Below are positions 20,489-39,224 of a stretch of DNA of 39,225 bases, one piece after another. Below the pieces are notes generated by a model. It ran no database searches. It was not told the origin of the DNA and worked only from the letters and a program-made list of their open reading frames with translations. The stretch spans positions 1 to 39,225 of the forward strand of contig JAUZQT010000163.1 of NCBI GenBank assembly GCA_030950825.1, read 5' to 3'. A program made the position numbers and the translations under genes. Origin of the DNA: Mariprofundaceae bacterium. GTDB taxonomy: Bacteria > Pseudomonadota > Zetaproteobacteria > Mariprofundales > Mariprofundaceae. Positions within the stretch are counted from its first letter, which is position 1; the number at the start of each line of letters is the position of its first letter.

Positions 20489-20576
<88 letters not shown>

Positions 20577-30558: not shown

Positions 30559-31839
30559 TCAAACAATCATTCCAGCGCCAACTGTATTATTGGTAAAGCC
30601 ATCAATAATAATAAAGCTGCCTGTCACCCGATTGTCTGCATACGGATCACAACAGAGGGGTTGTTGTAACTTAAATGTGACTTGTCCAATTTCGTTCATC
30701 GCCAAAGCAGTCGCTTCTTCCCGTTCAAGTGAGTGAATGTCGCGTTTAAAGTTCACTTCAGACACCAGTGCCTTCACCTGCGTGGTGGTATGTTTGATGA
30801 TGTATTTCTTGCGATTTTCCAATGCCTCATCACCAATCCAGCATACATTGGCAGTCAATTGTTTCTCGCCTGTTGTCTGCTCGCCAGCATGAACCAACAT
30901 ATCACCGCGCGAAATATCAATGTTATCATTCAACGTAATCGTGATACTTTGAGGTGAAAAGGCCTCTTCCAAATTACCATCAAAGGCAACAATTTCTTTC
31001 ACTGTTGAAGTTTTTCCAGAAGGCATCACCACCAATGAATCTCCCACCTTCACGGTTCCTGATGCAATGGTACCCATAAAGCCGCGATAATCAGGCAAAT
31101 CAGCTGTTTGTGGGCGATTGACCAATTGCACAGGCATACGGAATGGCTTTTCATCCAGATCATCCAAAACGGACATGGATTCCAAGGTTTCAAGCAAGGT
31201 GTCACCCTTATACCAGTCCATCTTATCACCGCGAATGGTCACCATATCACCCGTTAGTGCGGACATGGGTGTGCAAATCAAGTCTTTAATACCTTGCTTG
31301 GCGCAATATTCCTGCATTTCTTTACGAATTTTTTCAAACGCTGCTTGATCATAGTCAACCAAATCCATTTTATTGATCGCAACGATCAAATGAGGAATAC
31401 CCAACAAACCCAAAATGTGGGTATGACGTTTGGTTTGTGGCAAGACACCATGACGTGCATCAATCAAAATAATTGCTGCATTGGCAGTCGATGAGCCTGT
31501 CACCATATTACGTGTGTATTGCTCATGGCCTGGGCAATCCGCCATAATAAATTTACGTTTGGGAGTGGCAAAATAGCGGTATGCCACATCGATGGTGATG
31601 CCCTGCTCGCGCTCAGCAGCGAGGCCATCGGTCAACATCGCCAAATCAATTTCAGCAGCAGAAGACACATGCGTTGTACCTTTTTTCTTGCGCACAGCCA
31701 TCAATTGATCTTCAAATGCGCCTTTGGTATCAACAAGCAAACGGCCAATCAAAGTAGACTTACCATCATCCACACTGCCCACCGTAACCAAACGCAATAA
31801 TTCGATTTCTTTTGTTAGTTCAAAGTTAAATTCAGTCAT
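30559..31839 (-). CDS. cysN: Sulfate adenylyltransferase subunit 1 (GTPase), without a fused APS kinase domain
   Basis: GSVDDGKSTLIGRLL, DCPGHEQY and NKMD motifs. Ends after EF-Tu-like domain III. Start moved to ATG 31839 (MTEFNF...). Confidence 0.93.
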   Translation of the reverse strand: MTEFNFELTKEIELLRLVTVGSVDDGKSTLIGRLLVDTKGAFEDQLMAVRKKKGTTHVSSAAEIDLAMLTDGLAAEREQGITIDVAYRYFATPKRKFIMADCPGHEQYTRNMVTGSSTANAAIILIDARHGVLPQTKRHTHILGLLGIPHLIVAINKMDLVDYDQAAFEKIRKEMQEYCAKQGIKDLICTPMSALTGDMVTIRGDKMDWYKGDTLLETLESMSVLDDLDEKPFRMPVQLVNRPQTADLPDYRGFMGTIASGTVKVGDSLVVMPSGKTSTVKEIVAFDGNLEEAFSPQSITITLNDNIDISRGDMLVHAGEQTTGEKQLTANVCWIGDEALENRKKYIIKHTTTQVKALVSEVNFKRDIHSLEREEATALAMNEIGQVTFKLQQPLCCDPYADNRVTGSFIIIDGFTNNTVGAGMIV

Positions 31840-31858
31840 TTGCAAACCCCATTTGCAC

Positions 31859-31925: not shown

Positions 31926-32840
31926 TTAGAAATACCCTTCTTTTTTCTTATCTTCCATTGAGTTTGAGCCGTGATCAATGATTCGTGTTTCACGCTCGGA
32001 ACGACGCGCTGCGGCGGCTTCAATCACAATTTCATCCATATTCGTTGCATCCGAGCGCACCGCACCCGTACACGGACTACAGCCCAAGGTGCGGAAACGC
32101 GACATAATCATCTTCGGCGCTTCACCCTCAAGCAATTGATCCTTATTTTCTTCGTAATAAGGAATCAACATCTCACCACGCTCAATCATCGGACGTTCTT
32201 TGGCAAAATAAAGCGGCACAATGGGAATATTTTCATCGCGGATATACGACCAAATATCCATTTCTGTCCAATTTGAAATCGGGAATACACGTACCGATTC
32301 ACCATCATGAATACGACCATTATAAATGTTCCACAATTCAGGGCGTTGATTCTTTGGATCCCACTGACCAAATTCATCACGCATAGAAAACACACGTTCC
32401 TTGGCACGTGATTTTTCTTCATCACGTCGCGCCCCACCAAACGCCGCATCATAACCACCTTCTTCCAATGACTTCAGCAAAGCACCTGTTTTCAATGCAC
32501 CACAACAACGCGCCACACCAAACTCTTTTGGATTCATACCCTTGGCAATGGCATCTTCATTACGTTTCACAATCAAATCTGCACCAATCTCTTCGCAAAA
32601 CGCATCACGAAATTCATACATTTCTTTGAATTTAAACCCTGTATCCACATGCAGCAAAGAAAAAGGCAAGGGTGCAGGATAAAACGCCTTGCGCGCAAGA
32701 TGAACAAGCACGCTCGAATCCTTACCAACTGAATACAGCATCACAGGATTGCGAAATTCGGCCACAACTTCACGGATAATGTGAATGGATTCAGCCTCCA
32801 GTGCCTTCAGCTGTGTTAATTTATGTTTTGACATTTTCAT
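31926..32840 (-). CDS. cysD: Sulfate adenylyltransferase subunit 2
   Basis: PAPS-reductase-fold ATP pyrophosphatase: [39 protein letters not shown]. Confidence 0.95.
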
Positions 32841-32846
32841 AGACTC

Positions 32847-33569
32847 CTAAATTCCATCTCCAGATTCTCCTTCACCTTTCGGGGCTTTTAGCGAACTCAC
32901 ATGCAGACCGCACTCTGCTAAAGTGTCTTTATTTTCCCACCACCAACGACCAGCACGCGGGTCTTCACCCATGCTAATTGCCCGTGTGCACGGCTCACAA
33001 CCAATGGACACATAGAACGCATCATGCAATTTATTGTATGGCAAATCATGTTCACGAATATATGCCCATACATCTTTTTCTGTCCAATTGCGCATTGGAT
33101 TATATTTTTTCAAGCCATACACAGGGTCATCTTCCACAGGCGCAATATCACCACGGTTTTTCGCTTGATCTTTACGCCGCCCCGTTATCCACGCTTCCAT
33201 GCCATGTAATGCTTTTTTCAAAGGCTGAACCTTGCGCACTTGACAACATAGCTTTCGATTTTCCACGGATTTCTGGAATAAATTCACACCATACTCGTGT
33301 ACCATGGCCTGCACCGCACCCGCATCTGGAAAAAGAATATGCAACATATTGCCATAACGCTCACGTAGCGCATCCATTAAATCATACGTTGGCTGTGGTA
33401 AACGACCTGTATCCAATGTCACAATGCGAATGTCCAAATTATAACGACAAATCAGGTCAATCAATACAATACCTTGCGAGCCCAAGCTGCATGAATACAC
33501 CAACTTATCGCCATGCTTATCCTTGGCTTCTTGTAGTAAGGTCACTGCCTCATCCATCAAAAGCTTCAT
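32847..33569 (-). CDS. cysH: Adenylyl-sulfate (APS) reductase, thioredoxin-dependent, Fe-S type
   Basis: SCSLGSQG P-loop-like motif and catalytic ECGLH. The Cys-Cys...CXXC set (KLCCQVRK, GCEPCT) distinguishes APS reductases from PAPS reductases. Start placed at ATG 33569, which overlaps the upstream stop (ATGA). Confidence 0.88.
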   Translation of the reverse strand: MKLLMDEAVTLLQEAKDKHGDKLVYSCSLGSQGIVLIDLICRYNLDIRIVTLDTGRLPQPTYDLMDALRERYGNMLHILFPDAGAVQAMVHEYGVNLFQKSVENRKLCCQVRKVQPLKKALHGMEAWITGRRKDQAKNRGDIAPVEDDPVYGLKKYNPMRNWTEKDVWAYIREHDLPYNKLHDAFYVSIGCEPCTRAISMGEDPRAGRWWWENKDTLAECGLHVSSLKAPKGEGESGDGI

Positions 33570-36064
33570 TGAACCTCCAGTAATGATAATCCAACCACTG
33601 GCCACCAGTATGTAGAGACCAACATAAACAACACCAACGATGATACAGACAAAATCGCACCATATCGCAGCATACTACCGCCATTTAGGTAGCCACTGGC
33701 ATAAATCATAGCATTCGGTGGTGTACTCATCGGCAGCATAAAAGCAAAACCAGCCACAATGCCAATGGTTAAAGCCACGCCCACAGGATCAAGCCCTGCC
33801 GCCATACCCACAGGCATGGCAATAGGCAATACAATCGCCACTGCCGCCGCATTGCTCACACCCTCTGTAAAAAGCAGCGTCATCAGCACCAAAAAACCAA
33901 CCAAAGCCAAGCCCACTATATCCCCAGGAATCAAGCTATCCGCCAACCACACAGCCGCACCTGTATCAGAGAGCGCTTTGCCAATAGCAATCGCACCGCC
34001 ATACATCAACACCACACTCCATGACACATGCTGCTCAATCGCTTTCCACTCCACCAGTCGCAGCACAAACATCAAAACCACCGCAATCAAGGAGATACTG
34101 GCCAGCGTATTCGCATGCCCTGCCAGCATCCATGCCAATACCGTGGATAAAAGCAGGATCGCCATCAACCAGCCTTTGACACCCAATCCGCCCAATTCCA
34201 AACGACGCTGGGCAAAGCGGTTTCGTACCTGATCCAAATCCAATGACACCGATGCAGCCATGCGCATCAATAAGTACAGGGCAACCGATAATACGCCAAT
34301 CACCAATGGCAATGCTGCCAAAGTCCACTCTAAAAATGAAAAGGATTGACCCGTAAGCTCACTACTCAAGGCCAAAGCCAAAGGCCCACGTGCTCCACCA
34401 AGCAAGGTAGTCACACCGCCAATAATGGCTCCCCATGCCAGTGCGAAAAAAATTGCTTGGGCATAAATATGACCTTTTTTCAAATCCAAACTACGCACAA
34501 TTTCCCAGGCTATCGGCAAAAACAATGCCGCCACGGCGTGCTCTGGCATCACACAGGCCATCAAGGCCGGCAACAATAACATCGCGCATAAAAGTTGCTT
34601 GGGAGTATTGGCTACGCGATCCAACATCGCCAAGGCTACACGCTCAGATAAACCGCTTTGCATCACCCCTGCAATCAACATAAAGGCACCAAGAATAAAA
34701 AACACCGCTGGATTGCCAAATAGTGCAAACACATCGGCGGCTGGCATCACCTCCAAAAGCGGTAATAATGCCATACCCAATAGGGATGTAATGGCCAGCG
34801 GCAACAGCTGCGTCACCCACAACACCAAACACAATAAAAAAACCAGCAAGGCATGCCAGCCCTCCGAGCTTAAACCTTCAGGCGCGTTGGATAGAACCCC
34901 CACGAAAAAAGCCAAAACAACCACAAACATGGCGGCAAACGGTGCGGCTTCCGCAGCCAACACACGGTGAAAAGGTCGACGATCAGATTTTTCGCCCTTA
35001 CCAACCCGCAAATGCCTGCGAAAGCTATCTTGCCAACCAGCCCAGCGCCTGCCAAACGATGAAACCACCCAGCGCTCGGATAAAGCAGGCTGCTCACCAT
35101 CCAAAACACGGCTTTCCATCGGTGTTAATACACGCCCCATATCACGCAAACGATGGGTAGGCAAACCTGATGTTTCCAATAACTGATACTGCAATAATAG
35201 GGCTTTCTCAACATCATCCAACGATGGTATTTTTACATCTTGTAAAGGTGTTCCAGGCAAAGGTCGAAAGGGAATCAATAATGGTACAATGCCTTTATCC
35301 ACCAAACTTCTCAAGCCATCTAGGGTTGATTTCAATGGCTCCAGCCCTACAATCAAATGGCTTACCACTGCTCCTGAGCGAAAAACTTTACGCGCATGCT
35401 CTAATGCCTGCCAAATAGCATCCTGACCACCCTGTTGCTGTTTACCTGGGCAAATCTCTGTAAAACACTCCCCATCAAAAACTTCCAAGTTACAAATAAA
35501 AATATCCAAACCCGCTGCATACAAGGCATCAATCACACTGACATCTTTCGGTGCAACCGTTTCTAGGGCAATCTGACGGTGCCCCAAATGCCTGCGGAGC
35601 AAGGCAATCACAGGAATTAAATCCGATAATCCAGCATGATCATTGGCACTGAAACCATTGTACAAGTAAACGGTATCAATTTCACGCTCATTCAAAGCAG
35701 CCAGAACAACTTCAACCAATTCCAAGGCATCACGCAATGGCGGTTTCTCTTCATTCAACATCGAATCAAACTGGCAATAGCCACATGCTTGATTTTCTTG
35801 CGCAAAAAAACCACAGCCCATAAACGGCTGCAAAATCAACAAACGGTCATGCAGAGAAGCAAAACTTCCCATTCGGGAGCCCTTACGTGTCAACTTACTA
35901 TAAAAAGTAGGGGCTTCAACCAGCTCAACTGTTTCCGATTCCCCACCACAGGACATGACAGCCATGCCATTATCCCCTACCTTTAAAGAAAAGCCACTGG
36001 CTTCTGTATACGGCTGACCAACGGGTACCGAACAAAAGTGCCCACTGGGCAGGCGTAAATCCAA
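33566..36064 (-). CDS. Fusion protein: N-terminal Fe-S/radical-SAM-like soluble domain (~350 aa) + C-terminal DASS/SLC13-type anion (putative sulfate) permease
   Basis: One uninterrupted ORF. N-terminal part has CGFFAQENQACGYC (C-X9-C-X2-C) and beta/alpha-like periodicity. C-terminal part has >10 TM helices, GNPAVFFILGAFMLIAG and MSTPPNAMIYASG DASS hairpin motifs. Start uncertain: TTG 36064 without RBS, versus ATG 35965 preceded by GGTAGGGGA. Confidence 0.7.
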   Translation of the reverse strand: MDLRLPSGHFCSVPVGQPYTEASGFSLKVGDNGMAVMSCGGESETVELVEAPTFYSKLTRKGSRMGSFASLHDRLLILQPFMGCGFFAQENQACGYCQFDSMLNEEKPPLRDALELVEVVLAALNEREIDTVYLYNGFSANDHAGLSDLIPVIALLRRHLGHRQIALETVAPKDVSVIDALYAAGLDIFICNLEVFDGECFTEICPGKQQQGGQDAIWQALEHARKVFRSGAVVSHLIVGLEPLKSTLDGLRSLVDKGIVPLLIPFRPLPGTPLQDVKIPSLDDVEKALLLQYQLLETSGLPTHRLRDMGRVLTPMESRVLDGEQPALSERWVVSSFGRRWAGWQDSFRRHLRVGKGEKSDRRPFHRVLAAEAAPFAAMFVVVLAFFVGVLSNAPEGLSSEGWHALLVFLLCLVLWVTQLLPLAITSLLGMALLPLLEVMPAADVFALFGNPAVFFILGAFMLIAGVMQSGLSERVALAMLDRVANTPKQLLCAMLLLPALMACVMPEHAVAALFLPIAWEIVRSLDLKKGHIYAQAIFFALAWGAIIGGVTTLLGGARGPLALALSSELTGQSFSFLEWTLAALPLVIGVLSVALYLLMRMAASVSLDLDQVRNRFAQRRLELGGLGVKGWLMAILLLSTVLAWMLAGHANTLASISLIAVVLMFVLRLVEWKAIEQHVSWSVVLMYGGAIAIGKALSDTGAAVWLADSLIPGDIVGLALVGFLVLMTLLFTEGVSNAAAVAIVLPIAMPVGMAAGLDPVGVALTIGIVAGFAFMLPMSTPPNAMIYASGYLNGGSMLRYGAILSVSSLVLFMLVSTYWWPVVGLSLLEVQ

Positions 36065-36201: not shown

Positions 36202-38544
36202 TTAGATTTGAGAGATCTTCTCCACAACAATGCGCCACTGGCGATCAGAAAGCTGCTCTTTGATATGCACCTTCTGGCCTTGCTCTTCCAAAGATAGCGG
36301 TACATTTTCAATCGGTGCGCCATCATCAAGAATCACTTCCAGTTGCGAACCAATAGCCATTGAAGATAATTTGATTTTCGTTTTTACAAAATTCATCGGA
36401 CAAGCCACACCCGATAAATCCAAAGTCAACACATCCGAAGAGGATTCGCTTTCAGCAACGACTTCCTCAGCCGCTTCACCAGCATCAGGCACAGCAGCAA
36501 AACGTTTATCGGCCAAGACAAGCCATGCGCCTTGCACGTCTTTTAGCTTGGTCACACCCGCCGCAGGCTCTGCCAAATCAATACTCATCAATGCACTTTG
36601 CACAGCATTAAAGCATTGCGTCACTTCGACATCACTACCCGCATGGCTCATCAACAAAGCAAATACTTCAGAGTCATCTTCAGGCGCTTCACCGTAAGCC
36701 ACTAAGAATGCACGTGCTGTAGAAATTGCAGAACGACGCAAGGCTGTTTGCGCTTCTGCCCAGAACATCGCATCGGTATGGGCGCGTGCAATCAACAACT
36801 CATATTCCGCTTCTGAAATCAAGGCATCCGACATCGAAAGTACTGCGCCTGCACATTCGCCTTTTTTATTGCCTTTGGTATTAAAGGCTTCGTTCTCACT
36901 CCAATCGTAAATCAGACCTTCCACTTCGCCCGCATCGGCTTTAAATGGTGCCAAAATATCAGACAGTCCTTCTTTACCCAAACGCTCAGCCCAGTCATGC
37001 ATTGTTTCAGTTTCGTTACGCCCATCTTTATAAGCGTTCAATACCGCAATACCTGCTTCTGGTGCATATTTGGCTGGCACCCACTCCGAAGCAAATGCAA
37101 ACGGTTGCCCCGCCACACCTGAGCCTCCAACATGCAATTGATAATGCGGCACTGGCTGACCTGCGACCTTCTTAGCCATACCATGAAAACCCAAGTCCGC
37201 AATATGATGACGACCACAAGAATGCTGGCAGCCCGATGCCTTCACCGTGATACCTGCCAAGGTTGGATCCTGTTTCAAATCAACCATGAGCGGTTGCAGA
37301 GCTTGTGCCAAACCGCGACTGGAAGTAATGCCCAAACGGCAGGTTTCAGTGCCTGGACAAGCCGTAATATCCGAAATGCCACGCGCAAATGAAGTTGGAA
37401 TACCCGCATTACCAAGCATTTCCACCACATCATCCACTCTTTCAGCATGCACACCGACAATAACCAGACCTTGCTCGGTGGTCACACGCAGCTCTTTGCT
37501 CGCTCCCAAACGTGCTGCTTCAGCTACTGCACGACACTGCAATGGTGTTAAATCACCACGGAACACATTCAATAAAATAGATTTCTTGCCATCATGCTGA
37601 TCCACCACACCACTTTCATTAAATGGCATCGCATCCGTCGGCGTACGCCAATTCGCGTCGCTAAAACCAGCATCATCCTTATGCGTGGATTCAATCACCG
37701 CACGTTGTTTTTTGTACTCTTCAATAAAGCCTTCCGTGCCAAGTTTTTGCATCACATATTTCATACGCGCACGGGCACGACGTTTGCGATCAGAGTACTT
37801 GAAGTGAATGCGCATCAATGCCTCGCCCACCAATAGTATCTCGGATTCTTCAATGAATTCTTCCAATAAAATCGCTTGTACAGGTTGTGAAGACAAGCCG
37901 CCCGCAGCCCAAACCTTAAAGCCAGCCTTGCCATCTTTATGCGTGGCAATAAAACCAATATCGTGCATACCGCCCAAACCGCAATCAGTATCACAGCCAG
38001 AAAATGTCACTTTAAATTTGCGTGGAAACTGCTGACCAAGCGGGTGACGCAAAAAATATTCCGCGAATTTACGTGCATGAATGCTCACATCGGCATGTTC
38101 AGCAGGGCAACGGCCTGCCAAAAAGCACGTCGTAACATTGCGCACGGTATTACCGCAGGCTTCACGCGTGGTCAGGCCGATCCCATCCAATTTACGCAAG
38201 AATGGAACCACATCATCCAGAGATACAAAGTTCACCTGAATATCCTGACGCGTAGTAATATGCACCACCTTCTCAGGTGGTTCCTTTAATGTGCCATCCG
38301 TTGGCAGGCAACCACCATAAGACTCAGCACAATCACCCAACACTTCAAGCTGTTCAGGTGTCAAGTTTCCGCCTGGCAACTTGGCACGAATCATCTGCAC
38401 GCCTTCCTGACGTTGGCCATAAACACCCATTTGCAGACGAAATGGTGTAAAGCGTTCCTCAGCCATGGTTCCAGCTTTAAAGGCTTTGTAACCAGCTTCA
38501 AATTCATCAACATCAGCCGTGTGTGCAAAATCAAATGTCGTCAT
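36202..38544 (-). CDS. sir: Ferredoxin-type assimilatory sulfite reductase (NirA/Sir hemoprotein) with C-terminal helical domain and TusA-like domain
   Basis: Siroheme-[4Fe-4S] motif TACPGTETCRLG...SGCQHSCGRHH and pseudo-repeat EACGNTVRN...SGCDTDCG. The last ~75 aa, LDLSGVACPMNFVKTKIKL...LEVILDD..., match the TusA/SirA fold signature. Confidence 0.85.
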   Translation of the reverse strand: MTTFDFAHTADVDEFEAGYKAFKAGTMAEERFTPFRLQMGVYGQRQEGVQMIRAKLPGGNLTPEQLEVLGDCAESYGGCLPTDGTLKEPPEKVVHITTRQDIQVNFVSLDDVVPFLRKLDGIGLTTREACGNTVRNVTTCFLAGRCPAEHADVSIHARKFAEYFLRHPLGQQFPRKFKVTFSGCDTDCGLGGMHDIGFIATHKDGKAGFKVWAAGGLSSQPVQAILLEEFIEESEILLVGEALMRIHFKYSDRKRRARARMKYVMQKLGTEGFIEEYKKQRAVIESTHKDDAGFSDANWRTPTDAMPFNESGVVDQHDGKKSILLNVFRGDLTPLQCRAVAEAARLGASKELRVTTEQGLVIVGVHAERVDDVVEMLGNAGIPTSFARGISDITACPGTETCRLGITSSRGLAQALQPLMVDLKQDPTLAGITVKASGCQHSCGRHHIADLGFHGMAKKVAGQPVPHYQLHVGGSGVAGQPFAFASEWVPAKYAPEAGIAVLNAYKDGRNETETMHDWAERLGKEGLSDILAPFKADAGEVEGLIYDWSENEAFNTKGNKKGECAGAVLSMSDALISEAEYELLIARAHTDAMFWAEAQTALRRSAISTARAFLVAYGEAPEDDSEVFALLMSHAGSDVEVTQCFNAVQSALMSIDLAEPAAGVTKLKDVQGAWLVLADKRFAAVPDAGEAAEEVVAESESSSDVLTLDLSGVACPMNFVKTKIKLSSMAIGSQLEVILDDGAPIENVPLSLEEQGQKVHIKEQLSDRQWRIVVEKISQI

Positions 38545-38690: not shown

Positions 38691-39224
38691 TTATTCGCCG
38701 AATTTTAGTTCGCAAGCTTGTTCGTATGTCACCAAGTCTGTAATCGTCGGATTATCACCACACAACGGACAGCCAGGGTCTTTACGCAACTTCAATTTTT
38801 TCCATTCCATGCGCAAGGCATCAAATACCATTAATTTTCCTGACAAGGAATCGCCAATAGCCAACAGTTCTTTAACCGCTTCCACCGCTTGAATCGTTCC
38901 GACAGCACCTGCCAATGCCCCCAAAATACCAGCTTCCGAACATGATGGAACCAGACCTGCTGGTGGTGGCTCAGGATACAAACAACGATAACAAGGCCCA
39001 TCTTTATGCACATGCGGTTTGTAGGTTGCGACTTGCCCTTCAAAGCGGAACATCGCACCAGAAATCAACGGCTTCTTCTCAAAATAACACGCATCATTCA
39101 CCAAAAAACGAGTTGGGAAGTTATCACAGCCATCGATAATCAAATCATATTCACGGATAATGTCGCGAATATTGTCTTCAGTAACAAAATAGTTATACGT
39201 ATTCACTTTCACATCAGGGTTCAA
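38691..39224 (-). CDS. ThiF/MoeB-family adenylyltransferase (E1-like), C-terminal part; N-terminus lies outside the window
   Basis: DGCDNFPTRFLVNDAC, CYRCLYPEPPP, SCSEAGILG and GCPLCG are typical of MoeB/ThiF. No rhodanese domain at the C-terminus. Confidence 0.85.
   Translation of the reverse strand: MNPDVKVNTYNYFVTEDNIRDIIREYDLIIDGCDNFPTRFLVNDACYFEKKPLISGAMFRFEGQVATYKPHVHKDGPCYRCLYPEPPPAGLVPSCSEAGILGALAGAVGTIQAVEAVKELLAIGDSLSGKLMVFDALRMEWKKLKLRKDPGCPLCGDNPTITDLVTYEQACELKFGE

Follow-up and report, generated by a model that had tools for sequence, protein, structure and literature searches.

A widespread sulfite reductase fused to HEPN-fold and TusA domains, and its possible role as sulfur donor to ubiquitin-like carriers

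Where does the sulfur go once an assimilatory sulfite reductase has reduced it? In textbook sulfate assimilation, free sulfide is released and picked up by O-acetylserine sulfhydrylase. A 39,225-nucleotide stretch of DNA from a Mariprofundaceae bacterium (contig JAUZQT010000163.1 of assembly GCA_030950825.1; the whole stretch is hereafter called the window) raises the question anew, as one of its open reading frames (ORFs) encodes a sulfite reductase (Sir) that carries a sulfur-carrier domain of the TusA family at its own C-terminus. An earlier, sequence-only reading had described this 780-amino-acid (aa) ORF as a NirA/Sir-type core followed by a helical segment, an acidic linker and a TusA-like domain, and had proposed that the reduction product is captured directly as a protein-bound persulfide, to the advantage of an organism living with Fe(II). 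In the current work, we describe the architecture, conservation, gene neighbourhood and distribution of this fusion. We consider it probable, though by no means assured, that the enzyme passes reduced sulfur through cysteines of its own to a carrier activated by an E1 enzyme, thereby replacing the rhodanese domain that this E1 lacks.

The protein is composed of a sulfite-reductase core, a flexible cysteine-containing loop, a non-catalytic HEPN-fold domain, a disordered linker and a TusA domain (Table 1). Pfam matches two stretches each of NIR_SIR (E = 2.5e-50) and NIR_SIR_ferr (E = 2.9e-24) in the core, and the C-x5-C...C-x3-C motif expected there is formed by C396, C402, C439 and C443, in agreement with the sequence-only reading. 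The whole protein was modelled with AlphaFold2 from an alignment of 60 sequences; the model has a mean predicted local distance difference test (pLDDT) score of 86, with values mostly at or above 90 in the core (aa 1-540), below 60 in the loop (aa 541-566), 73-93 in a five-helix bundle (aa 565-681) and below 50 in the acidic linker (aa 684-703), which had also been correctly recognized from the sequence, is predicted to be disordered and varies in both length and sequence among relatives. The last domain (aa 706-775) is assigned a beta-alpha-beta-alpha-beta-beta order by DSSP, with pLDDT of 75-91 in this model and 75-95 across models; when aa 541-780 were modelled separately, pLDDT reached 83 overall and 88-98 in the helical part. 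What had been taken for a single helical segment is therefore a helical bundle over most of its length, but its first part, aa 541-566, is a flexible and conserved cysteine loop. Both this loop and the linker of about 20 residues are predicted to be flexible, as expected for shuttling arms. A comparison of the extension with the sequences of the Protein Data Bank (PDB) returned only TusA-family and weak HEPN matches, and no solved structure with the whole architecture was found there.

By sequence and by predicted fold, the last domain is a true member of the TusA family. The match to PF01206 at aa 707-776 (E = 6.2e-19; 68.1 bits against a gathering cut-off of 28.6) spans profile positions 2-70 of 70 and includes the signature LDLSGVACPMNFVKTKIKL, and the same profile is matched by 24 of 24 diverse modules of the family. 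The domain search and the model of the C-terminal part, both of which the sequence-only reading had suggested, agree on a TusA fold, with Foldseek template-modelling (TM) scores of 0.83 to E. coli TusA (3LVJ_C) and 0.84-0.85 to the SirA-like protein 3HZ7. Cys715 stands at the N-terminus of helix 1, which is the active-site position of TusA, and is predicted to carry sulfur. Conservation was assessed in 60 diverse full-length members that are 25-66 % identical to the window protein. Cys715-Pro716-x-Asn718 is invariant in this set, so that the cysteine whose conservation had been in question is present in every member, and the replacement of the second proline by asparagine, noted earlier for the window protein, proves to be a family trait (CPxN throughout, CPxP never). 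Asn747-Val748-Pro749-x-Ser751 is likewise invariant, giving the domain motif CPxN(F/Y)VK.K ... NVPxS.

The loop ahead of the helical bundle holds a second cysteine, Cys564, within the motif Y.DWG....FSL...G.GEC(S/A/G)(A/G)G ('KKGECAG' in the window protein). D547 and C564 are found in 60/60 members and E563 in 58/60, and within the Zetaproteobacteria the block around Cys564 (aa 543-582) is the best-conserved stretch of the whole protein. Thus, the two cysteines of the extension are as invariant as the four cluster cysteines of the catalytic half, all of which are present in all 60 sequences.

The helical bundle between these two cysteines adopts a HEPN-like fold. In the separate model of aa 541-780, it matches 2HSB (TM 0.69), 1WOL (0.67), 1UFB (0.65), 1O3U (0.64) and the HEPN domain of sacsin, 3O10 (0.61), each with a Foldseek probability of 1.00. 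The family profile gives weak matches to 2HSB (E = 0.005) and 9XBD when compared with PDB sequences; Pfam HEPN (PF05168) is not matched by the window protein itself, although it is matched by 6 of the 24 family modules, with a best E of 7e-07. The possibility that this segment is a new fold was rejected on the basis of the Foldseek matches and the Pfam matches of relatives. A catalytic HEPN RNase was also rejected, since the Rx4-6H motif is absent: the residues after the near-invariant R611, AFLVAYGE (consensus ALLVTRG), include no histidine, which makes this a non-nuclease HEPN. A further cysteine in the helical domain, C644, is not conserved and was discarded as a functional candidate.

On sequence grounds, the ORF is assigned to a distinct and widespread subfamily of assimilatory siroheme sulfite reductases, for which siroheme binding and six-electron reduction are predicted. 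The PDB sequence closest to the core is that of M. tuberculosis NirA (1ZJ8; E = 1.6e-37), and this nearest solved relative, although named 'NirA', is a sulfite reductase. By Foldseek, the core model resembles 1ZJ8 (TM 0.78), tobacco nitrite reductase (NiR; 0.76) and E. coli SiRHP (0.80), and its fold also matches plant sulfite reductase. All aligned family members share the anion-binding residues R53, R99, R135, K176 and K178, and the pattern PRK(F/Y)K around the last two (PRKFK in the window protein) aligns with PRKYK of M. tuberculosis NirA, as opposed to PRKWN of tobacco NiR. This K-x-K-type motif, together with the operon in which the gene lies, supports sulfite as the predicted substrate. 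No curated NCBIfam equivalog (NirA family, CysI, Sir or NiR) was reached, the best match being to NF007126 with 210 bits against a cut-off of 523; because every reductase model remained below its cut-off, the proteins are best regarded as a separate subfamily without an equivalog.

A feature of the core that had gone unremarked is a second motif of the same spacing in its N-terminal half. C140, C146, C184 and C188 align Cys-for-Cys with the cluster motifs of the C-terminal half of NirA and of Fsr, whereas the N-terminal halves of M. tuberculosis NirA and plant NiR lack the matching cysteines. The motif is kept in 42-44 of the 60 aligned members (about 70 %) and is absent from sister enzymes that have no TusA domain; its pattern suggests that the protein may, like DsrAB, have an additional Fe-S or siroheme site. 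Close to the motif, Cys130 ('REACGNT'; codon 38155-38157, reverse strand) aligns with the cysteine of 'TEACGDC' in M. tuberculosis NirA (1ZJ8 chain position 172), which we take to be Cys161, the residue that is joined covalently to a tyrosine next to the siroheme. Nearly all family members have Y42, and C130 occurs in about half of them.

The gene neighbourhood points to the likely acceptor. Immediately upstream of the reductase gene lies a ThiF/MoeB/UbaA-type E1 that is cut by the end of the window, and its full-length orthologues in two Zetaproteobacterial relatives (loci L087 and L001, whose Sir-TusA proteins are 87 % and 83 % identical to the window protein) are only 273 aa long, which leaves no room for a rhodanese domain. 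The gene order at both loci is ThrC/MetM-like enzyme, carrier, NIL protein, CysK, E1 and Sir-TusA, followed by CysH, CysD and CysN. The ThrC-like enzyme, which opens the cluster, comprises 414-417 aa, and the carrier is a MoaD/SAMP1-type protein of 92 aa that ends in ...PAIAGGC (L001) or ...AGGK (L087). An 80-aa NIL-domain protein is encoded between the carrier and CysK. Carriers with one residue beyond the Gly-Gly normally depend on a JAB/Mec peptidase, but neither of these two clusters contained a JAB gene. The likely ThiS/MoaD-type acceptor with its rhodanese-less E1 had not been part of the sequence-only reading, and the same is true of the N-terminal-half cysteine motif, the invariant Cys564 and the identity of the HEPN domain.

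The sequence-only reading had also proposed a survey of how often such fusions occur and beside which genes, and this survey extended the association well beyond the Zetaproteobacteria. Hidden Markov models (HMMs) for ThiS, ThiF and JAB were built from three seed examples and scored against 78 species-level loci, and neighbours on the same strand within 5 kb were counted for the 45 complete fusions that had at least 3 kb of sequence on both sides. ThiF was found near Sir-TusA in 27 of these 45 loci, ThiS in 25 and JAB in 24, and all three occurred together in 23; the chance expectation is about 1 %, a rough estimate based on the few ThiF-family genes that a genome usually has. The neighbouring E1 reading frames are mostly 273-316 aa long, again too short to include a rhodanese domain, and the carriers mostly end in FLYFMGGG plus one to three residues, which is the JAB-processed type. 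For example, the Selenihalanaerobacter operon reads PALP, PALP, ThiS, ThiF, JAB, Sir-TusA, MetY, AprAB, and a Rikenellaceae metagenome-assembled genome (MAG) encodes Sir-TusA, ThiS, ThiF and JAB in a row. In Halonatronum saccharophilum DSM 13868, genes for a CysK-like protein, a permease, ThiS, ThiF (270 aa), JAB, Sir-TusA and MetY are followed by those for adenosine 5'-phosphosulfate (APS) kinase, a DASS symporter and ATP sulfurylase. The MetY and CysK-like enzymes of loci L004 and L064, like the CysK-type and ThrC/MetM-like ones of L001 and L087, are candidate users of a thiocarboxylate. A further arrangement is found in a Kiritimatiellia MAG (L043 5928-8726, forward strand), in which a single 933-aa frame places a Prok-JAB domain (aa 10-109) ahead of Sir-HEPN-TusA; a long ORF in L037, considered as a second fusion of this kind, contains no JAB domain and was rejected. 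The sister enzymes without TusA had no ThiS or ThiF neighbours in the three contexts looked at.

The fusion is neither a Zetaproteobacterial nor an Fe(II) speciality. The 120 best full-protein matches listed are 74-100 % identical to the window protein, all have the same three Pfam domains, and the named ones belong to Zetaproteobacteria (Mariprofundus, Ghiorsea). Beyond these close relatives, an exhaustive search with aa 541-780 against representatives clustered at 50 % identity returned 860 of them at E <= 1e-3, many being proteins of about 740-830 aa with the whole module at the C-terminus and 25-40 % identity. The members named in a profile search include Nitrospinota, Nitrospirota/Manganitrophaceae, Phycisphaerae, Bacteroidia/Rikenellaceae, 'Glassbacteria', Selenihalanaerobacter and Bacillota. 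A scan of one genome per species with the pattern CPxN[YF]V[KRQ][TA]K[LVI] matched at least 600 stretches, 598 of which were confirmed as relatives, and the hosts of 79 retained loci include Prevotella, Alistipes putredinis, Omnitrophota, Fibrobacterota, Planctomycetota, Verrucomicrobiota, Kiritimatiellia, Margulisbacteria, Elusimicrobiota, Spirochaetota, Nitrospirota and Halanaerobiales. In total, the module is spread over more than 15 phyla, with gut Bacteroidales among them.

From these data, a relay from sulfite to a carrier thiocarboxylate can be proposed because an invariant pair of cysteines is placed on flexible elements, one of them in a TusA fold, and because carrier genes are syntenic, the E1 lacks a rhodanese domain and a JAB fusion exists. 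In this model, the rhodanese-less ThiF/MoeB-type E1 would adenylate the C-terminal Gly-Gly of a ThiS/MoaD-type carrier while the reductase reduces sulfite at its siroheme. Cys564 in the loop and Cys715 on the swinging TusA domain would then accept sulfur in reduced form and transfer it to the acyl-adenylate of the carrier, the TusA arm doing the work of the rhodanese domain found in MoeZ-type E1s. The resulting thiocarboxylate may feed CysK/CysM-like and MetM- or MetY-like enzymes dependent on pyridoxal phosphate (PLP), yielding cysteine and homocysteine. The persulfide capture put forward in the sequence-only reading fares well in one respect, as gene context points to protein-mediated hand-off over simple sulfide release, but its description as the capture of a six-electron product needs correction: the sulfur of a persulfide is S(0), whereas full reduction gives S(-II), so that a persulfide requires either an oxidant, for which a Cys564-Cys715 disulfide is a candidate, or interception after four electrons. 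In the redox-neutral option, sulfide would open the Cys564-Cys715 disulfide to form a persulfide on the TusA domain, which would attack the acyl-adenylate; the second cysteine would then resolve the acyl-disulfide, freeing the thiocarboxylate and re-forming the disulfide. Such a two-cysteine cycle is chemically plausible. Alternatively, a cysteine may take the sulfur from the siroheme at the four-electron stage, in the manner of DsrC and DsrAB. Our confidence in either of these chemical details is much lower than in the relay as a whole. A more elaborate version of the four-electron option, which we regard as doubtful, would make the enzyme a DsrAB/DsrC-like sulfite-to-thiocarboxylate machine: Cys564 would enter the siroheme pocket and stop the reaction at four electrons, the sulfur would move as persulfide or trisulfide to Cys715, docking on the E1-carrier complex would perhaps involve the HEPN domain, no free sulfide would appear, and the additional N-terminal-half [4Fe-4S] or siroheme site would mark the enzyme, a monomer, as a 'missing link' from the symmetric Dsr type to assimilatory reductases of the classical, asymmetric kind.

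Several observations weigh against the relay. The window ends inside the E1 gene, and a carrier gene is not visible in it. About 40 % of the surveyed loci have no ThiS, ThiF or JAB nearby, and the Nitrospinota and Nitrospirota examples have none either, which means that the link to carrier genes is not obligatory or that the partners are encoded elsewhere; the survey itself used stop-to-stop ORFs on contigs that are mostly from MAGs, and its loci are the best-scoring 80 and not a random sample. A sister clade of about 697 aa stops right after the HEPN domain and keeps D547, E563, C564 and R611 with no TusA domain, so that the loop and HEPN domain must have a function independent of TusA. Furthermore, the HcyS/HcyF/HcyD/MetY pathway of Wolinella is said to have been reconstituted with bisulfide produced by Sir, in which case a carrier domain on the reductase may not be chemically required.

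In a rival reading, free sulfide is released, as in a classical Sir, and the extension acts as a redox lid or regulator, as protection against leakage of sulfide or sulfite, or as an oligomerization or docking module (HEPN), with no part in sulfur carriage. The sister clade, which has no carrier genes nearby, and the unlinked fusion loci both fit this account, and free bisulfide reportedly thiocarboxylates adenylated carriers in vitro. It is nevertheless hard to reconcile a passive role with the absolute conservation of the TusA cysteine and its surrounding motif over more than 15 phyla, and the consistent lack of a rhodanese domain in the E1 and the existence of a JAB-Sir-TusA fusion also argue against it; we rate this reading as rather unlikely. 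A role on the substrate side appears to us improbable to a similar degree. Here, the TusA domain and cysteine loop would bind or cleave an oxidized donor, for instance thiosulfate or an S-sulfonated protein, feed sulfite to the siroheme and perhaps keep the sulfane sulfur, as in YeeD/TsuB- or DsrE3/TusA-type proteins. The TusA domain does resemble TM0983, YeeD/TsuB (8K1R, 8J4C) and YedF more closely in sequence than it resembles E. coli TusA, other Zetaproteobacterial clusters hold an extra DsrE2-like and TusA pair between cysH and cysD, and TusA-family proteins bearing thiosulfonate have reportedly been observed. However, the operons encode full sulfate activation (ATP sulfurylase or CysDN, and APS or 3'-phosphoadenosine-5'-phosphosulfate (PAPS) reductase), which yields sulfite directly; the tightest recurrent neighbours, E1, carrier and JAB, are sulfur acceptors rather than thiosulfate-handling genes; and the missing sulfur-donor domain of the E1 would be left unexplained.

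Two further proposals can be set aside with greater assurance. The sequence-only reading had seen an advantage for life with Fe(II), in that Zetaproteobacteria would avoid free sulfide that precipitates iron. The best matches of the window protein are all Zetaproteobacterial and each of the 120 listed has the fusion, but the same architecture occurs at least 598 times across many phyla in the one-genome-per-species collection, and gut Bacteroidales, Planctomycetota, Verrucomicrobiota, Spirochaetota, Halanaerobiales and others have it with its invariant residues unchanged. This wide distribution removes the link to Fe(II), and an adaptation specific to it, now very improbable, was rejected. That the enzyme is an assimilatory nitrite reductase is at least as hard to credit, even though the second-best NCBIfam match is to a ferredoxin-nitrite reductase, some members are named 'nitrite reductase' and a Nitrospinota homologue lies beside amtB, glnA and glnB: the invariant K176-x-K178 is the pattern of sulfite reductases where plant NiR has K-x-N, the window operon contains CysH-CysD-CysN, and a sulfur-carrier domain would make no sense for nitrite. 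For the window protein, this assignment was rejected on the basis of the motif and the CysH/D/N context. The Nitrospinota member (L002 7371-12394), which adjoins amtB, glnB (P-II) and glnA in place of sulfur genes, keeps K-x-K; its context may mean that its physiological role differs, or only that it has no operon structure.

The relay that we favour has precedents in part. Operons combining ThiS/MoaD, JAB, E1, SirA and sulfite reductase were delineated as class 4e by Iyer, Burroughs and Aravind (2006; PMC1779556), who found that the E1 is always rhodanese-less and that SirA (= TusA), always present, is predicted to play the role of the rhodanese. The present clusters agree with these operons in gene content and logic, and the Halonatronum and Selenihalanaerobacter operons match the class 4e layout; however, SirA was described as a separate protein and not, as here, as a domain of the reductase that follows the cysteine loop and HEPN domain, and the Zetaproteobacterial version differs in having a ThrC/MetM-like enzyme, a NIL protein and CysK, with no JAB in the cluster. 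In some actinobacteria (Nocardioides, Acidothermus), ThiS is fused to sulfite reductase (PMC1779556). These Sir-ThiS proteins also place a component of the carrier system at the C-terminus of the reductase, but the component is the carrier itself and not a TusA relay. Sulfate assimilation is coupled to a ubiquitin-like carrier by the same logic in the HcyS/HcyF/HcyD/MetY/Sir methionine pathway of Wolinella succinogenes. The CysO-CysM-MoeZ route has reportedly been established in M. tuberculosis. In Streptomyces, a ThrC-like MetM uses thiocarboxylated MetO that is matured by Mec and loaded by MoeZ (Hasebe et al., 2024, as summarized in the GapMind 2026 preprint). The CysO-CysM-Mec-MoeZ (cysteine) and MetO-MetM-Mec-MoeZ (homocysteine) systems share with the present clusters a carrier ending in Gly-Gly plus one residue, an E1, and CysK/M- and MetM-type PLP enzymes, but MoeZ has its own rhodanese as sulfur donor, while the E1 considered here (273 aa) has none and the candidate donor sits on the sulfite reductase.

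Comparison with individual proteins further defines what is particular to this one. M. tuberculosis NirA/SirA (1ZJ8), which is ferredoxin-dependent, has the same cluster cysteines and PRK(Y/F)K anion motif as the window core, but it stops after the core, with no cysteine loop, HEPN or TusA domain, and has lost the cluster cysteines of the N-terminal half. E. coli TusA, known from the IscS-TusA relay (3LVJ), has the same fold (root-mean-square deviation 2.5-2.9 A) and an equivalent cysteine at the start of helix 1; it differs in having CPxP in place of CPxN(F/Y)VK.K...NVPxS, with only marginal sequence similarity (E about 0.03-1), and is fed by a cysteine desulfurase, whereas here the sulfur source would be sulfite reduction. 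The likeness to DsrAB-DsrC is one of functional analogy only: that system also pairs a siroheme reductase with two conserved cysteines on flexible elements, placed so that they could capture sulfur at the active site, and its reductase also has cluster-type cysteines in both halves, but DsrC has no detectable homology to the loop or the TusA domain, the core here is NirA-type (TM about 0.45 to DsrA/B), and the context of DsrAB-DsrC is respiratory while that of Sir-TusA is biosynthetic. No paper on an assimilatory Sir-TusA or Sir-HEPN fusion, whether descriptive or experimental, was returned by a literature search. Since the architecture is catalogued in databases and the operon logic was anticipated in 2006, the system is not categorically new; to our knowledge, what had not been described within the literature searched is the fusion as a widespread Sir subfamily, the Cys564 loop, the HEPN-fold domain, the CPxN subtype of TusA, the second cluster motif and the quantitative association with rhodanese-less E1, ThiS and JAB.

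These findings suggest a channelled alternative to the release of free sulfide, in which the reductase would itself charge a protein relay with sulfur for ubiquitin-like carriers; the enzyme type is present in hundreds of species, with abundant gut Bacteroidales and many uncultured phyla among its hosts. If true, this would explain the sulfur source of rhodanese-less E1/ThiS-type systems, and would provide a tractable single-polypeptide model for transfer from a siroheme reductase to a cysteine-bearing partner, which has so far been studied only in DsrAB-DsrC. The coupling of assimilatory sulfite reduction to protein-thiocarboxylate formation thus becomes directly testable. There is also a consequence for annotation. 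Most members are labelled 'sulfurtransferase TusA family protein' by PGAP (one Spirochaetota member is named 'nitrite reductase'), a name that hides the only sulfite reductase of these genomes, so that cysteine and methionine prototrophy may be scored wrongly by pathway predictors.

Table 1. Features of the Sir-TusA gene and its surroundings; positions refer to the window unless a locus is named
Feature	Position	Strand	Basis or remark
Whole ORF, 780 aa plus stop	36202-38544	-	Start codon consistent with 23 orthologues
Siroheme/[4Fe-4S] sulfite-reductase core, aa 1-540 (predicted)	36925-38544	-	Pfam: two NIR_SIR_ferr plus NIR_SIR repeats
Catalytic-half cluster motif C396-x5-C402...C439-x3-C443	37216-37359	-	Four Cys invariant, 60/60
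N-terminal-half motif C140-x5-C146...C184-x3-C188	37981-38127	-	Cys-for-Cys alignment
Conserved flexible loop, aa 541-566, VEGLIYDWSENEAFNTKGNKKGECAG, with Cys564 (codon 36853-36855)	36847-36924	-	Conservation, pLDDT
HEPN-fold helical domain, aa 565-681 (117 aa)	36502-36852	-	Foldseek; Pfam in some family members
Acidic linker, aa 682-705	36430-36501	-	Predicted disordered; variable
TusA-fold domain, aa 706-780, with Cys715 (codon 36400-36402)	36205-36429	-	Pfam, predicted fold
ThiF/MoeB/UbaA-type E1, C-terminal 177 aa, immediately upstream, no C-terminal rhodanese	38691-39224	-	Window end cuts gene
Variant radical-SAM domain fused to DASS/SLC13 anion (sulfate-type) symporter, 832 aa, downstream	33566-36064	-	
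CysH, APS-reductase type	32847-33605	-	
CysD	31926-32840	-	
CysN	30559-31845	-	
Zetaproteobacterial carrier and 80-aa NIL-domain gene region	L001 7084-7739; L087 6215-6791		

The surrounding genes offer some further observations. A DsrE2-like gene and a stand-alone TusA gene lie between cysH and cysD in other Zetaproteobacteria (L001 15680-16408; L087 14699-15410); the gap between these two genes in the window is only 6 nt (32840-32847), so the pair is missing here. The stand-alone TusA has CPMTFVKVK...NVPAS, a CPxT form of the same subtype as the fused domain, and the desulfurase-linked TusA of locus L003 has CPIP. An Rfam scan of the window found no riboswitch before the sulfur operon, the sole match being a tRNA (20489-20573, forward strand). 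The radical-SAM domain downstream of the reductase gene matches NF045502 with 181 bits, and its cysteine pattern is not the canonical CxxxCxxC. Its fusion to the DASS symporter occupies the same position in Ghiorsea and other Mariprofundaceae, including L001, where it is called as two genes, and L087; the joining of a radical-SAM enzyme to a transporter is unusual. Finally, ThiS HMM matches fall inside ORFs of 344-484 aa near the reductase gene in seven loci (L046, L049, L062, L067, L068, L073 and L076). The same long ORF also matches the ThiF HMM in L067 and L073, and those of L062, L068 and L076 end in an identical '...FPDTGERYF...' motif, which suggests that these frames may be further carrier fusions, to E1 or to other enzymes.

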